From a virus (lineage: Duplodnaviria; Heunggongvirae; Uroviricota; Caudoviricetes): a DNA stretch of 5,513 nucleotides. The translations under genes were made by a program, and so were the position numbers. Under the pieces are notes generated by a model. It saw nothing but the letters and a program-made list of their open reading frames with translations, was not told the origin of the DNA and ran no database searches. Positions 1-5,513 of the stretch are shown here, in pieces; within the stretch, counting starts at the first letter, position 1; each line of letters begins with the position of its first letter. The DNA lies in the IMG/VR virus record IMGVR_UViG_2585427764_000006. One strand, 5' to 3'.

Positions 1-2
1 CG

Positions 3-320
3 GCAAAAGCGTTCGCATACCTGCTGAAACAGTGGGATGCACTGAACGTGTACTGCAGTAATGGCTGGGTGGAAATCGACAACAACATCGCAGAGAACGC
101 CTTACGGGGAGTGGCCGTAGGCCGGAAAAACTGGATGTTCGCGGGTTCCGACAGCGGTGGTGAACATGCGGCGGTGTTGTACTCGCTGATCGGCACATGC
201 CGTCTGAACAATGTGGAGCCAGAAAAGTGGCTGCGTTACGTCATTGAACATATCCAGGACTGGCCGGCAAACCGGGTACGCGATCTGTTGCCCTGGAAAG
301 TTGATCTGAGCTCTCAGTAA
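3..320 (+). CDS. IS66-family transposase, C-terminal fragment (5' end outside window)
   Basis: The frame is open from position 3 (AKAFAYLLKQWDALNVYCSNGWVEIDNNIAENALRGVAVGRKNWMFAGSDSGGEHAAVLYSLIGTCRLNNVEPEKWLRYV...). The EIDNN-AE-ALR...GRKNW-FAGS motif block is, from memory, characteristic of the C-terminus of IS66-family DDE transposases. The GTG at 48 in the ORF track is not the true start. Confidence 0.85.
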   Translation, partial: AKAFAYLLKQWDALNVYCSNGWVEIDNNIAENALRGVAVGRKNWMFAGSDSGGEHAAVLYSLIGTCRLNNVEPEKWLRYVIEHIQDWPANRVRDLLPWKVDLSSQ

Positions 321-321
321 A

Positions 322-350
322 TATCAATACGGTTCTGACGAGTCGCTTAC
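322..350 (-). repeat. Candidate IS66 terminal inverted repeat (right end)
   Basis: The minus strand reads 5'-GTAAGCGACTCGTCAGAACCGTATTGATAT from position 350. The exact IR length cannot be fixed without the left end. Confidence 0.5.
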
Positions 351-351
351 C

Positions 352-1479
352 TTCAGCATCCGGACGTTCGCCAATTTTCGCCTCCCACGTCTCACCGAGC
401 GTGGTGTTTACGAAGGTTTTACGTTTTCCCGTATCCCCTTTCGTTTTCATCCAGTCTTTGACAATCTGCACCCAGGTGGTGAACGGGCTGTACACCGTCC
501 AGATGTGAAAGGTCACGCTGTCCGGCGGCTCAATCTCTTCACCGGATGACGAAAACCAGAGAATGCCATCACGGGTCCAGATCCCGGTCTTTTCGCAGAT
601 ATAACGGGCATCAGTGAAGTCCAGCTCCTGCTGGCGGATGACGCAGGCATTATGCTCGCAGAGATAAAACACGCTGGAGGGGTCATCCGGCGTCCATTTG
701 AGGCCAAACGGCGTCTCTTTGTCGCCAAATTTAAGATACTGCTCCTCCCCGCAGTGCGGGCAGGCAACATGAAAACGCATAAAATGCGGGGATTCACTGG
801 CTGCACGCTCAATCTGGCAGGTGCCTCTCACTTTGGGCGTGGAGCCACGGATGGACTTTGGCCAGACCGAGCCTTCAATACGTTTGTCGCCAAGGAACGT
901 CGGAGAGCCTTCCTGTTCAATATCCTCATCAAAGGCAGCAAGTTCATCATAACCCGCCACATCCACCGACTTTTCACGGTAGTTTTTTGCCGCTTTACCG
1001 CCCAGGCACCAGAAGCCACGACCATTGGAAAAACGCTTCATAGTGAGCGTGTTATCCCGGTGCTTTTTGCCATACCACGGAGCCAGCGCCAGCAGCGACG
1101 GAATATCGCGGATGGTCGGCTCAACGTGGGTTTTCATAAAGTTCTCGGCATCACCATCCGTCGGCAACCAGATAAGGGTGTTGCGCTGCTTATGCTCTAT
1201 GAAGTAGGCATAAACACCCAGCAGCATTTTGGAATAACCAACACGGGCAGACTTCACCACATTCACCTCGCGGACGTAGTCACTGCCCATCGCATTCATG
1301 ATGGCCCGCTGAAAGGGCAGTGTTTCCCAGCGCCCTTCCTGGTATGCGGATTCTTTCGGGAGATAGTAATTGGCATCCGCCCATTCAACGGCGGTCTGTG
1401 GCTCCGGCCGGAACAGTGAGCGAAGCCCGGCGCGGACAAAATGCCGCAGCCTGTTAACCTGACTGTTCGATATATTCAC
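352..1479 (-). pseudogene. A: Terminase large subunit (lambda gpA-like), N-terminal 376 codons, interrupted by the IS66 insertion
   Basis: The translation MNISNSQVNRLRHFVRAGLRSLFRPEPQTAVEWADANYYLPKES...TLGETWEAKIGERPDAE matches lambda gpA as I recall it. Full-length gpA is about 641 aa. After codon 376 the ORF runs into IS-derived sequence (GKRLVRTVLIFTESSDQ...) and stops at 241. The start overlaps the Nu1 3' end by 26 nt, as in lambda. Confidence 0.9.
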
Positions 1480-1999
1480 TCAGCAACCCCGGTATCAGTT
1501 CATCCAGCGCGGCTGCTTTGTTCATGGCTTTGATGATATCCCGTTTCAGGAAATCAACATGTCGGTTTTCCAGTTCCGGAAAACGCCGCTGCACCGACAG
1601 GGGGATCCCGTCGAGAATACTGGCAATTTCACCTGCGATCCGCGACAGCACGAAAGTACAGAATGCGGTTTCCACCACTTCAGCGGAGTCTCTGGCATTC
1701 TTCAGTTCCTGTGCGTCGGCCTGCGCACGCGTAAGTCGATGGCGTTCGTACTCAATAGTCCCTGGCTGGAGATCTGTCTCGCTGGCCTGCCGCAGTTCTT
1801 CAACTTCCCGGCGCAGCTTTTCGTTCTCAATTTCAGCATCCCTTTCGGCATACCATCTTATAACGGCGGCAGAGTCATAAAGCACCTCATTACCCTTGCC
1901 ACCGCCTCGCAGAACGGGCATTCCCTGTTCCTGCCAGTTCTGAATGGTACGGATACTCGCACCGAAAATGTCAGCCAGCTGCTTTTTGTTGACTTCCAT
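1454..1999 (-). CDS. nu1: Terminase small subunit (lambda gpNu1-like), apparently intact
   Basis: The 181-aa product MEVNKKQLADIFGASIRTIQNWQEQGMPVLRGGGKGNEVLYDSAAV... is near-identical to lambda Nu1 as recalled. It begins with the winged-helix DNA-binding region and lies immediately downstream of cosB. Confidence 0.95.
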   Translation of the reverse strand: MEVNKKQLADIFGASIRTIQNWQEQGMPVLRGGGKGNEVLYDSAAVIRWYAERDAEIENEKLRREVEELRQASETDLQPGTIEYERHRLTRAQADAQELKNARDSAEVVETAFCTFVLSRIAGEIASILDGIPLSVQRRFPELENRHVDFLKRDIIKAMNKAAALDELIPGLLSEYIEQSG

Positions 2000-2024
2000 T
2001 GTTCATTCCACGGACAAAAACAGA

Positions 2025-2079
2025 GAAAGGAAACGACAGAGGCCAAAAAGCCCGTTTTCAGCACCTGTCGTTTCCTTTC
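2025..2079 (-). promoter_or_regulatory. cosB terminase-binding R elements (R1/R2-like inverted pair)
   Basis: GAAAGGAAACGACAG at 2025-2039 and its exact reverse complement CTGTCGTTTCCTTTC at 2065-2079 form a perfect 15-bp inverted pair separated by 25 bp. They sit where lambda cosB R1/R2 sit relative to the Nu1 start. An R3-like copy (GAAGAACGGAAATG) is at about 2121-2138. Confidence 0.7.
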
Positions 2080-2176
2080 TTTTCAGGGGGTATTTTAAAT
2101 AAAAACATTAAGTTACAACGAAGAAGAACGGAAATGCCTTAAACCGGAAAATTTTCATAAATAGCGAAAACCCGCG

Positions 2177-2188
2177 AGGTCGCCGCCC
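2177..2188 (-). other. cosN (12-nt cohesive-end segment of the cos site)
   Basis: The plus strand reads AGGTCGCCGCCC, the reverse complement of the lambda cohesive end GGGCGGCGACCT. The flanks also match the lambda ends as recalled (CGCGGGTTTTCGCTATTTATGAAAATTTTCCGG on one side, CCGACAGGTTACG on the other). Confidence 0.85.
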
Positions 2189-2220
2189 CGTAACCTGTCG
2201 GATCGCCGGAAAGGACCCGC
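2189..2220 (-). promoter_or_regulatory. cosQ-containing region (packaging termination element) adjacent to cosN
   Basis: CGTAACCTGTCGGATCGCCGGAAAGGACCCGC is the reverse complement of the sequence that directly precedes cosN at the lambda right end, with apparently one substitution relative to my recollection of lambda. Confidence 0.5.
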
Positions 2221-2224
2221 AAAA

Positions 2225-2239
2225 TGATAATAATTATCA
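2225..2239. promoter_or_regulatory. Fur-box-like 7-1-7 palindrome (candidate iron-responsive operator)
   Basis: TGATAATAATTATCA is a perfect inverted repeat, TGATAAT-n-ATTATCA, matching the core Fur box motif. It lies about 150 bp upstream of the DUF3950 start codon on the plus strand. Confidence 0.4.
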
Positions 2240-2387
2240 TCTGCATGTCACAACGTGCATCTACGCCATCAAACCACGTCAAATAATCAATTATGACGCA
2301 GGTATCATATTAATTGATCTGCATCAACTTAACGTAAAAACAACTTCAGACAATACAAATCAGCGACACTGAATACGGGACAACCTC

Positions 2388-2621
2388 ATGTCAACGAAGA
2401 ACAGAACCCGCAGAACAACAACCCGCAACATCCGCTTTCCTAACCAAATGATTGAACAAATTAACATCGCTCTTGATCAAAAAGGGTCCGGGAATTTCTC
2501 AGCCTGGGTCATTGAAGCCTGCCGCCGGAGACTGTGCTCAGAAAAAAGAGTTTCTCCTGAAGCAAACAAAGAAAAGAGTGACATTACTGAATTGCTCAGA
2601 AAACAGATCAGACCAGATTGA
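2388..2621 (+). CDS. Small basic protein, DUF3950 family (YnfO/YlcI-like prophage protein)
   Basis: The 77-aa ORF MSTKNRTRRTTTRNIRFPNQMIEQINIALDQKGSGNFSAWVIEACRRRL... resembles the small proteins encoded next to noh/Nu1 in E. coli cryptic prophages. Its orientation is opposite to the late genes and the local sequence is AT-rich. Confidence 0.8.
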   Translation: MSTKNRTRRTTTRNIRFPNQMIEQINIALDQKGSGNFSAWVIEACRRRLCSEKRVSPEANKEKSDITELLRKQIRPD

Positions 2622-2677
2622 AGCAATTTAGATAATCGTGCAGACTACACCCCTCATATCACATGGAAGGTACTACA

Positions 2678-3088
2678 ATGGCTCAGGTTGCCATTTTTAA
2701 ACAAATATTCAATAAAGTGCGAAATAATTTAAACTATCACTGGTTTTATTCTGAACTAAAACGTCACAATGTCTCACATTACATTTACTATTTAGCCACA
2801 GAGAATATTCATCTTGTTCTTGAAAACGATAATACGGTTTTAATAAAAGGACAGGGTAAGGTTGTAAATGTAAGATTTTCAAAAAATAAATGCCTTATAG
2901 AAGCCACCTTAAAAGGATTCAAATCAGGAGAGTTATCATTTTACGAATACAGGAAAAATCTTGCTACAGCAGGGGTTTTCAGATGGATTACAAATATCCA
3001 CGAAAACAAAAGGTATTACTATACCTTTGATAATTCATTACTCTTTACTGAGAACATTCAGAACACTACACAAATATTTCCGCACTAA
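2678..3088 (+). CDS. DUF1398 family protein (YbcV/YdfO-like prophage protein)
   Basis: The ORF track gives 2663-3088, but the second ATG at 2678 is preceded by GGAAGG with about 6 nt spacing, so [14 protein letters not shown]... is the likelier start. The C-terminal block [38 protein letters not shown] is characteristic of this family as I recall it. GC content is low, about 25-30% by eye. Confidence 0.8.
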
Positions 3089-3344
3089 ATCATAACGTCC
3101 GGTTTCTTCCGTGCCAGAACCGGACTCGCTGGCATGATGAAATATGTGTACCCGGTAACCCCGGTGTGCATCGTTTTTGATTATTCCCACACACTCGCGC
3201 AGAAGGAGTTCCCCGTCGGGCTACGGTCTCTGTTAATACGGGAATACGGCGACGATACAGCGCATGATGTGTCAGGCTTGAATACCTTTATCCTTTAAAA
3301 GGGATATCAGTTAAGTTATCCCGTGTAGGGTATAAGCCATTATC

Positions 3345-3373
3345 AAAGCCACTCTGTAGGAAGTGGCTTTTGT
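3345..3373 (+). terminator. Candidate intrinsic terminator for the plus-strand moron genes
   Basis: AAAGCCACT (3345-3353) pairs with AGTGGCTTT (3362-3370) around an 8-nt loop, followed by TTTTG. The GC core is only 6 bp, so this is weak to moderate. Confidence 0.3.
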
Positions 3374-3378
3374 AATGG

Positions 3379-3405
3379 CAATAAAAAGCCCCGCGAATGC
3401 GAGGC
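3379..3405 (-). terminator. Candidate rho-independent terminator downstream of the Rz/Rz1 lysis genes
   Basis: On the minus strand GCCTCGC-ATTC-GCGGGGC forms a 7-bp GC-rich stem (one G-U pair) followed directly by TTTTTAT. It sits about 175 bp downstream of the Rz stop. Confidence 0.45.
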
Positions 3406-3579
3406 TAAATCCTGGTATTTGTAATGACTGGCTCTTATCTCAACGCAGCCCCTTACCGCGCGCAAAATGCTCAATATCAAGCATCAGCAATGAGATGTTT
3501 AATCTGGATTCACTCCAGAAGTGAGCACCACCCTGTCTACAGAGCCAGATGTGAAGGATGATGAGTAAAATTATCGCTA

Positions 3580-4047
3580 TCATCGAAGGCATTGCGTCCT
3601 GATGTATTCCTGAAGCGTTCTCAGTGCTGTTTGGTCGCGGATAATTCCGTCCCGGATACCGAGAACGTTTCGTCCAGCAACTGGAGAGAGTTCGACGGTG
3701 GCATCATTGCCCATGCCGGAGGCGCTGGAGGTTTCGGCTGAGGATGGCACAGGGCATTTTCCTTTGACGAGCACCCGACCACCATTATCAAGCTTGCGCC
3801 GAAGAGCATCATTTTCAGCTTTCGCATCAGCTAACTCCTTCGTGTATTTATCATCGAGTGCATCAGCATCACGCTGGCGCTGCTGCATGTCAGTAATGGT
3901 GGCGTTCGCCTTCTCCAGTTCACTGGCCTTGTTATCGCGCTGTTCTTTGTAGGCGATTGCATTATCACGGTAATGATTAACAGCCCATGACAGGCAGACG
4001 ATGATGCAGATAACCAGAGCGGAGATAATCGCGGTTACCCTGCTCAT
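3580..4047 (-). CDS. Rz: Rz i-spanin (inner-membrane spanin subunit)
   Basis: [31 protein letters not shown]... matches the lambda Rz N-terminus with its single N-terminal transmembrane helix and coiled-coil region. The probable start is the ATG at 4047-4045, which overlaps the R stop as ATGA; the ORF track starts 4 codons earlier. The C-terminal third diverges from lambda Rz. Confidence 0.9.
3621..3827 (-). CDS. Rz1: Rz1 o-spanin (outer-membrane lipoprotein), embedded in the +1 frame of Rz
   Basis: [21 protein letters not shown]... has a lipobox (VVGC) followed by a proline-rich segment ([11 protein letters not shown]), and lies wholly inside Rz in another frame, the classic embedded-spanin architecture. 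Confidence 0.8.
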
Positions 4048-4541
4048 TGTTGCCCCCACAAACAGACCTCACGCTCAATCTCACGACGAGTCATCAGGCC
4101 TTTCCATTGCTTACCGCCAGCGTATGCCCAGCGACGTAGCTGGTCACATGCGCCCTTGATATCGCCCTGGTTTATTTTGCGAAGAAGAGTAGATGTTCTG
4201 AAATTGCCTGCGCCCACGTTATAGACGAACGAGTAAAGAGCGCCGCGCGTTGTTTCCGGTATATCGACTTTGATGTACGGGTTAATTTGTCTGGCTACCG
4301 TGGCAAGGTCTTTATTCAGGAGGGCTTTGCATTCTGCTTCGGTATACGTTTTACCGGGAATGATGTCTTTTCCTGTATGCCCGTGACATACAGTCCATAC
4401 GCCAACGATATCTTTGTATGGTATGTAGCTGACACCTTCCAGACCATCGTTACCACTTGGGCCAGTGATTAACACTGATGCTATAGCAATTGCTCCGCCA
4501 CCAATAGCAGCAGCAACGGCTTTTCGTAATGATGGAGGCAT
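4044..4541 (-). CDS. R: SAR endolysin (phage 21 R-type lysozyme)
   Basis: The 165-aa product has an N-terminal Gly/Ala-rich weakly hydrophobic signal-anchor-release domain ([18 protein letters not shown]), then a T4-lysozyme-like catalytic triad at E35, D44 and T50. It is near-identical to phage 21 R as recalled. The start overlaps the S stop (TAATG). Confidence 0.93.
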
Positions 4542-4756
4542 TATTCACCTCTCGCAGCCTTGCGCTTATCTTCTTTAATCTTGAAATAAAGGTTTGTCAG
4601 GTACGTCAGCAGGCCAAATACCAAGCTACCCAGCACACCTATTGCTGCCCACTGTGAGGGCGTGACTTTATCGAGCAACTGTAAAAACCAGTAGCCAGCA
4701 CTGCCTGCGGAGGTGCCGTAGGCAATGCCCGTTGTTAACTTATCCATGGATTTCAT
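4541..4756 (-). CDS. S: Pinholin (phage 21 S-type), dual-start class II holin
   Basis: The 71-aa product [26 protein letters not shown]... has the dual-start motif Met1-Lys-Ser-Met4 (antiholin and holin forms), two transmembrane segments and a charged C-terminus. A strong Shine-Dalgarno GGAGGTGAGGC lies immediately upstream. Confidence 0.93.
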
Positions 4757-5002: not shown

Positions 5003-5092
5003 GAAGGAGATCGGTGAGTAACATCGATGGAGATCGGTTCGTGTCACTTTCACAGAACCGTTTTTAAATTACCTTCACTGATCTCCTTCGGT
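5003..5092. repeat. IS21-family terminal repeat cluster
   Basis: GGAGATCGGT occurs as direct copies at 5006-5015 and 5029-5038, the first as GAAGGAGATCGGT from 5003. An inverted copy (GATCTCCTTC, reverse complement of GAAGGAGATC) lies at 5081-5090, overlapping the last istB codons. Confidence 0.5.
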
Positions 5093-5512
5093 CAACGGAG
5101 ATTGTATTTTCCGCATTGATTCTCCTTGAAGTTCGATCTTGATACTGCCATGAACCAGTCGATCTAGGATGGCATCCGCATGTGTGGAGTCTCCGATCAT
5201 TTTGTACCAGTTTTCCACCGGCAACTGGCTCACTACGATGATTGAGCCTCGTTGGTACATCAGATCCACTATTTCCAGCAGGTCGCTACGCTGTTCTGAT
5301 GAGAGAGGTTCCAGCCCCCAGTCATCCAGAAGCAGCAGATCGCTATTATTCAGCCTGGTCAAAAGTTTGCTGTATCTTCCATCAGCATGCCCCTGATAGC
5401 ACTGTTCCATCAGCGCTTTAAGGCGATAATAGTAGACCTTGTATCCCTGTCGGCAGGCATTATGACCAAGTGCACATGCCAGGAACGTTTTACCGCTGCC
5501 GGTGGCCCCGGT
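5075..5512 (-). CDS. istB: IS21-family IstB ATP-binding helper protein, C-terminal portion (5' end outside window)
   Basis: The frame is open to the window edge: TGATGSGKTFLACALGHNACRQGYKVYYYRLKALMEQCYQ... contains a Walker A P-loop (GATGSGKT), then a Walker B-like LLLLDDWG. The ORF track shows only the part from the internal Met at 5410. Confidence 0.88.
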   Translation of the reverse strand, partial: TGATGSGKTFLACALGHNACRQGYKVYYYRLKALMEQCYQGHADGRYSKLLTRLNNSDLLLLDDWGLEPLSSEQRSDLLEIVDLMYQRGSIIVVSQLPVENWYKMIGDSTHADAILDRLVHGSIKIELQGESMRKIQSPLTEGDQ

Positions 5513-5513
5513 C

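Follow-up and report, generated by a model that had tools for sequence, protein, structure and literature searches.

Two separable accessory genes, ynfO and ydfO, in the cos-to-lysis interval of a lambda-type Escherichia coli prophage

Between the cos site and the lysis genes, phage lambda and the Escherichia coli prophages Qin and DLP12 hold members of two small gene families, which are known as ynfO (b4533) and ydfO (b1549) in Qin and as ylcI and ybcV in DLP12. In all of them the members share this slot, with cos/Nu1 on one side and the lysis genes on the other, are oriented antisense to the late genes and have the same Fur box nearby. Another gene of this slot is bor, the lysogenic-conversion lipoprotein gene of lambda, which is found between cos and Rz on the same antisense strand; Bor has a signal sequence, a reported serum-resistance phenotype and expression in lysogens, whereas the ydfO product is cytoplasmic. 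Here we analyse a window of 5,513 nucleotides, the whole of the stretch taken from IMG/VR record IMGVR_UViG_2585427764_000006, which is a fragment of a lambda-type E. coli prophage with one member of each family on its + strand between cos and Rz (Table 1). An earlier note, made from the sequence alone, had described the two as one AT-rich moron. We put at about 60% the joint account that they are independent cassettes in a cos-to-lysis hotspot, that YnfO is likely a ribbon-helix-helix (RHH) regulator, that the DUF1398 protein YdfO is soluble and non-catalytic, and that both, if active, act in the prophage state.

The family assignments proposed from the translations were borne out by profile searches. 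The 77-aa product matches Pfam DUF3950 (PF13132; expectation value (E) 4.9e-21, 74.8 bits against a cut-off of 25) and the NCBIfam family YlcI_YnfO_N (NF041551; 35.7 bits, cut-off 30), while the 136-aa product matches Pfam DUF1398 (PF07166; E 4.8e-43, 146.5 bits, cut-off 22) over the full profile (1-119). For ydfO, the start at 2678 is preferred to the ATG at 2663 since a Shine-Dalgarno sequence (GGAAGG, 2666-2671) lies 6 nt upstream and the RefSeq start is identical. Positions 2000-3600 are 100% identical to several E. coli chromosomes, where RefSeq names the products 'YlcI/YnfO family protein' and 'DUF1398 family protein', and related sequence is present in 4899 of 5426 complete E. coli genomes, at a median of two places per genome. 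Other parts of the earlier description also stand: the accessory position between cos and the lysis genes, the orientation opposite to the surrounding phage genes, all of which are on the - strand, and the lack of an established function for either family.

The layout of the window resembles that of Qin, while DLP12 is laid out like lambda. In lambda, the YnfO homologue and the DUF1398 gene, lambdap78, are kept apart by an insert of ~530 bp with lambdap79 in opposite orientation, and lambdap78 is followed by bor; DLP12 has ybcW at the corresponding place, and in both the YnfO tail differs from that of the window. The first 52 residues of YnfO are 96-98% identical to their counterparts in Qin, DLP12 and lambda. 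The window differs from all three in its DUF1398 allele, which is distinct and ~25% diverged (75-77% identical). The lambda annotation is incomplete here: the YnfO homologue is an unannotated 64-aa open reading frame (ORF) at complement 48109-48303 of NC_001416, with its first 52 residues 96% identical to the window protein, and the annotated GTG start makes lambdap78 too long, at 177 aa, where the homologous protein has 136 aa. A coevolution study reports that 'intergenic mutations downstream of lambdap79' lower infection efficiency, and these may fall in or near this unannotated ORF. The ybcW homologue lambdap79, which the window does not carry, has been scored 'essential' by CRISPR interference (CRISPRi), a score that probably reflects polarity on late transcription.

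The two genes come apart when the interval is compared between related phages. We sampled 66 viral contigs with a Nu1 at least 99% identical to that of the window and at least 2.5 kb of sequence upstream. Behind this near-identical Nu1, YnfO was present in 54/66 and DUF1398 in 25/66: the cos-Rz interval contained both genes in 25 contigs, YnfO with bor in place of DUF1398 in 18, YnfO alone in eight, YnfO with a lambdap79 homologue in three, and neither gene in 12, four of which had bor. Outside this sample, in a phage locus designated L160, YnfO stands alone, again antisense, with the lysis genes on one side and an HNH/Terminase_2/TerL packaging module on the other. DUF1398 genes that have diverged to 53% identity or less are likewise found solo in chromosomal contexts, as ycgX-like genes in Escherichia and in Klebsiella, Kluyvera, Pseudocitrobacter, Citrobacter and S. 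enterica diarizonae, one of them placed after an aryl-polyene-type cluster, and no YnfO homologue was found within 4 kb of these diverged chromosomal genes. Upstream of ydfO, the sequences of the window, Qin, DLP12 and lambda agree only once a short palindrome is reached, no matter whether it is preceded by ynfO or by the lambdap79 insert, so that ydfO has a conserved 5' cassette of its own. The palindrome reads GAT in the window where the other three have GGT.

These observations bear directly on the reading of the pair as a type II toxin-antitoxin system, with YnfO as RHH antitoxin and autorepressor and DUF1398 as toxin. The arrangement is suggestive of one, in that the gene of a small RHH-like protein stands 56 nt ahead of that of another small protein, the usual order in such systems, and YnfO has a weak HicB-like match. 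Moreover, the 77-aa YnfO variant is followed by DUF1398 at ~60 nt in 79/80 viral contigs. The DUF1398 allele behind this same 77-aa YnfO is either 99% or 75% identical to that of the window, however, and there is thus no co-variation between the two proteins. An obligate pair is excluded, and a toxin-antitoxin system argued against, by the solo occurrences of each gene, including DUF1398 in many enterobacterial chromosomes and YnfO alone or with bor, by the separate 5' cassette of ydfO and by this mixing of alleles; the opposite-strand gene between the two in lambda and DLP12 and the lack of a PADLOC match point the same way. We therefore reject the toxin-antitoxin pair on synteny, the would-be toxin being found without its antitoxin, and consider it very improbable.

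It follows that ynfO and ydfO are two independent accessory cassettes and not the single two-gene unit of the earlier note. Each of them is present or absent between near-identical neighbours, as morons are. Their base composition had been put at roughly 25-30% GC. Only ydfO, at 31.1%, is markedly AT-rich and in this too like a moron, and the estimate applies to no more than part of it, the lowest 200-nt window having 28%; ynfO, at 44.0%, differs only mildly from the 53-54% of Nu1 and terminase A (which had been put at about 50-55%), and the interval 2388-3088 as a whole has 36.2%.

YnfO is a real protein under purifying selection. In an alignment of 33 homologues residues 1-49 are nearly invariant, and the C-terminal tails are mosaic and wholly different. 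This conservation could have another origin, namely that the ORF is kept only through linkage to cis-acting packaging DNA beside cos and encodes no functional protein: among the window, Qin, DLP12 and lambda, identity is 95% across the 200 bp that lead from cos to the ATG and the initial 150 nt of the ORF taken together. L160 speaks against this, as its homology to ynfO starts at the start codon, the DNA upstream is unrelated and the locus uses a different terminase. Over the 49 shared codons the synonymous rate (dS) is 0.77 and the non-synonymous rate (dN) 0.055, a ratio (omega) of 0.07. The conservation of YnfO is thus more than hitch-hiking with cos, because L160 shares the coding part alone, and at such a ratio; linkage to cis-acting DNA as the sole cause is scarcely tenable.

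The conserved residues 1-50 probably form an RHH domain. Like the repressors Arc, Mnt, CopG and MetJ, YnfO is small and has a basic N-terminal arm (six Arg/Lys and no acidic residue among the first 18) and two predicted helices joined by a glycine turn; unlike them, it has a variable C-terminal tail. Polar and hydrophobic side chains alternate in the putative strand, R-N-I-R-F-P in YnfO against F-N-L-R-W-P in Arc, and are followed by helix A, the turn G33-S-G-N-F-S38 and helix B (W-V-I-E-A-C-R-R-R-L). The AlphaFold2 model gives an extended basic N-terminus, helices at 19-32 and 34-52 with a predicted local distance difference test score of ~89, and a low-confidence third helix. A test for the beta-alpha-alpha order of the fold thus returned two helices and an extended N-terminus, in a monomer model in which the strand cannot form. 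By hhalign, YnfO lies in register with Arc, at a probability of only ~1%. The sole database hint of an RHH fold is the weak HicB-like match, at E 0.007 in PHROG; no PDB profile and none of the Pfam RHH families matched. All Foldseek hits of the YnfO model have E of 6 or above, the plausible top matches being TCP domains, and the weak fold matches include the RHH proteins MazE6, MazE7, KacA, ParD and RelB alongside the TCP domain. TCP domains are themselves RHH-like. YnfO thus has no statistically significant sequence or fold similarity to known members of the Arc/MetJ/CopG group.

Taken together, the predicted features are suggestive, though not proof, of a small RHH DNA-binding protein, which we regard as quite likely. 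Nucleic-acid binding, which had been read from the basic, Arg/Thr-rich N-terminus, is therefore plausible in a modified form: the part that reads DNA would likely be the RHH domain (residues ~13-50), with the basic stretch as its N-terminal arm and strand. YnfO would most likely act as a dimer; the conserved region upstream of its own gene and the nearby Fur-controlled promoter are candidate targets. An imperfect 22-bp palindrome lies 90-111 bp upstream of the ynfO start and is invariant in the four phages; from its sequence, it is a candidate operator for YnfO or for another regulator. In L160, a P22-antirepressor-like gene (7213-7782) lies inside the lysis region ~1 kb from the solo YnfO, and a paper on Enterobacter satellites lists YlcI/YnfO beside AntA/AntB antirepressors; an association of the Arc-and-Ant kind is possible.

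The second protein is better placed structurally. YdfO of the window matches the solution nuclear magnetic resonance (NMR) structure of E. coli YdfO (PDB 2HH8; E 1.7e-66, 75% identical) and has the YdfO fold, an alpha-alpha-beta-beta-beta unit that is repeated twice; the two halves of DUF1398 align weakly but in register (hhalign E 0.012). The invariant residues of the family (L27, Y35, N43, G99, V100, W103 and Y114) are mostly aromatic or structural, and the DUF1398 alignment shows no conserved set of His, Cys, Ser or Asp. The protein is under purifying selection, which follows the fold. Between the window, lambda and Qin alleles dN/dS is 0.18-0.38, the beta-strand cores (codons 31-57 and 91-136) have an omega of 0.04-0.16, and more variability is seen in the first helices and in codons 58-90, where omega rises to as much as 0.58. 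DUF1398 is a soluble protein of orphan fold without a catalytic signature; its likeliest role is therefore to bind a partner or ligand, and not that of an enzyme or envelope component.

Source annotations call this protein a 'putative envelope protein' or 'head protein', and PHROG family phrog_413 is labelled head protein. These labels are baseless, because YdfO has no hydrophobic segment (maximum 19-residue hydropathy 0.34-0.39); nor were a signal peptide, lipobox or transmembrane segment found in it. A structural role also sits badly with the soluble NMR structure, the orientation antisense to the late operon, the absence of the gene from 41/66 phages with the same Nu1 and the homologues outside prophages. 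In lambda, CRISPRi knock-down of lambdap78 leaves plating unaffected (PMC10695390), so that the DUF1398 homologue is non-essential there. On sequence properties and dispensability we reject an envelope or head protein, which is next to inconceivable here. The 'essentiality' of ydfO reported 'only by TraDIS' (transposon-directed insertion-site sequencing) we take as a technical artefact of repeat mapping or of an occluded AT-rich target. One paper states that YdfO overexpression raises oxidative-stress resistance, citing Wang et al. 2010 (PMC4077768). In that source the effect belongs to YfdK, YfdO and YfdS of prophage CPS-53, and ydfO appears nowhere in the main text (PMC3105296). We therefore reject the oxidative-stress role as a gene-name mix-up with YfdO of CPS-53, which leaves YdfO without functional evidence in the literature found, this having been its sole published claim.

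How the two cassettes might be expressed is suggested mainly by their surroundings. Judging from the layout, late transcription should silence both genes because the late operon reads antisense through them, and they would then matter only in the prophage state or early in infection. Being AT-rich and having a short conserved 5' region of its own, ydfO is probably silent under laboratory conditions; it could be held under H-NS-type silencing and then be switched on by host regulators or stress. The palindrome at the 5' edge of its cassette coincides with PdhR sites found upstream of ydfO and ybcV in K-12 by genomic systematic evolution of ligands by exponential enrichment, and ybcV mRNA is 10-fold lower in a pdhR mutant (PMC7660256). 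Close downstream of the palindrome, a relaxed scan found a -10-like hexamer with a poor -35, which is a candidate activator-dependent ydfO promoter. Published work on the K-12 paralogues points to conditional expression: in exponential-phase cells an imidazolium ionic liquid raised ydfO expression 12- to 117-fold (PMC4077768), and ybcV rose more than 1000-fold upon overexpression of T4 MotB, which interacts with H-NS (PMC7827196). A list of convergent transcript pairs that overlap includes ybcW with ylcI (PMC12288877).

Several points weigh against this account of expression and, with it, against the joint account. Promoter scans gave only weak promoter-like sites on the + strand and no convincing promoter upstream of ynfO, the MotB effect on ybcV could reflect prophage induction and not lost silencing, and the case for H-NS silencing of ydfO is drawn from composition and indirect data. 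Furthermore, neither gene is among those given as expressed in lambda lysogens, a list that names only cI, rexAB, lom and bor (PMC7067206).

Iron had been named earlier among the phenotypes worth checking, and a perfect 7-1-7 Fur box does lie upstream of ynfO, 7 bp from cosQ, and its core is unchanged across the window, Qin, DLP12 and lambda. The box is, however, the already-known site of nohA and nohB, where Fur binding was seen in gel shifts (PMC2189734), and the box of the window occupies the equal position, 233 bp upstream of the Nu1 homologue. The sigma-70-like promoter that overlaps it aims at cos, Nu1 and terminase A, away from ynfO, in a scan whose total number of sites equalled that expected from shuffles. 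Fur control of ynfO was rejected, as this promoter-like site is directed at Nu1 and the scans gave no + strand promoter across the box.

A further possibility is that DUF1398, with or without YnfO, is a prophage factor for defence against other phages or superinfection exclusion, which stays silent until an incoming phage disturbs host silencing. It would suit a variable accessory hotspot in which the gene is interchangeable with bor, the strong de-repression of ybcV by the H-NS-interacting MotB, and the helical regions that vary far more between alleles than the beta core, with an omega of 0.4-0.6; at codons 1-30 of ydfO there are 10 non-synonymous and 0 synonymous changes, an imbalance that is not significant (estimated P ~0.13). 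On the other side, the defence models of PADLOC-DB gave no match apart from a chance-level one to Csx23 (E 0.023), diverged paralogues occur in ordinary chromosomal contexts, no phenotype is reported, and the sole phage-related mention is the loss of ydfO in one phage-resistant mutant. We regard an exclusion factor as possible but unsupported, and on the whole unlikely. As something of a long shot, the two proteins might be joined functionally, with YnfO as an Arc-like repressor of a cos-proximal promoter, the candidate being the Fur-box promoter from which terminase might otherwise be made in a lysogen, and DUF1398 as a silenced effector that is freed when H-NS is neutralized, for example by an infecting phage, and that protects the lysogen. 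The joint account of independent cassettes, a likely RHH regulator and a soluble partner- or ligand-binding protein remains the one we prefer, and the features on which it draws are collected in Table 1.

Table 1. Features of the window, in order of position (1 is the first letter of the 5,513 nucleotides)
Feature	Position	Strand	Basis or remark
IS66-family transposase end	1-345		truncates terminase A
Terminase A (large subunit) fragment	broken off at ~320-345 by IS66-family element	-	ORF list, RefSeq
Nu1 (terminase small subunit), divergent neighbour on cos side	1454-1999	-	ORF list, RefSeq of identical locus
cosN 12-nt cohesive-end sequence, presumed; reverse complement of GGGCGGCGACCT	2177-2188		sequence compared with end of lambda record
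cosQ (GGGTCCT), presumed	2212-2218
Sigma-70-like promoter (GTGACA, 16 nt, TATCAT; 10/12 matches), overlaps Fur box	2224-2251	-	consensus match only
Perfect 7-1-7 Fur box TGATAATAATTATCA	2225-2239		1 exact match against 0.02 expected by chance
Imperfect 22-bp palindrome CGTCAAATAATCAATTATGACG, candidate operator	2277-2298
ynfO-like gene, 77 aa, YlcI/YnfO family, DUF3950	2388-2621	+	Pfam and NCBIfam matches
Conserved domain of YnfO, residues 1-50, probably RHH	2388-2537	+
Palindrome GATCAGACC (GGTCAGACC in Qin, DLP12, lambda)	2606-2614		5' edge of conserved DUF1398 cassette
GATAAT, -10-like, poor -35; candidate activator-dependent ydfO promoter	2631-2636	+	relaxed scan, weak consensus match
ydfO-like gene, DUF1398, 136 aa	2678-3088	+	upstream ATG at 2663 would give 141 aa
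54-aa ORF, probably non-coding	3134-3298	+
Strong hairpin, possible terminator of ynfO/ydfO transcription	3336-3379	+	-24.9 kcal/mol, z -5.0, 0/200 shuffles as stable; inverted repeat
Intrinsic-terminator-like hairpin with T run, convergent with hairpin at 3336-3379	3387-3406	-	-14.1 kcal/mol, z -3.4
50-aa ORF	3440-3592	-	RefSeq: hypothetical protein
Rz spanin, convergent neighbour on lysis side; embedded Rz1 at 3621-3827	3580-4047	-	ORF list, RefSeq
R	4044-4541	-
S	4541-4756	-
IS21-family istB	5075-5513

The remaining features of the window concern the state of the prophage and the flanks of the two genes. The prophage is defective, as the end of an IS66-family element truncates terminase A, and on the other flank an IS21-family istB has taken the place of the sequence before the holin; the ynfO/ydfO interval is intact between these two insertion-sequence ends. 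We take the identities of cosN and cosQ from lambda. The short ORF between ydfO and Rz has its sequence in common with lambda only over about the first 14 codons, and the one just downstream of Rz has a hydrophobic N-terminus. Between positions 2000 and 3700, Rfam gave only chance-level matches. A number of database records, labelled as non-enterobacterial 'genomes' or small 'plasmids' (Arcanobacterium, Brevibacillus, Pedobacter, Flavobacterium, Cohnella and others), also carry the locus, on contigs of ~3.5 kb or 48.5 kb. One of them, CP136411.1 (3566 bp), matches the lambda right end at 99.8% identity across 3121 bp. Such records are lambda control-DNA contaminants and not hosts of the locus, the source probably being the 3.6-kb control strand used in nanopore sequencing.

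The genes studied here are already known as widespread, uncharacterized accessory genes of lambdoid phages, and the finding is real but ordinary. They are nonetheless present in nearly every E. coli genome and in lambda itself, yet without known function, and several points about them are now clearer: they form independent cassettes and neither an operon-like pair nor a toxin-antitoxin system, the names 'envelope' and 'head protein' have no basis, the lambda annotation has a gap and the published claim for YdfO is a mix-up of names. Although no new kind of system is revealed, the result narrows the range of worthwhile experiments. Should the bolder proposal of an Arc-like repressor and a silenced, protective effector be true, the last genes still unassigned at the lambda right end would form a regulated module for the protection of the prophage.

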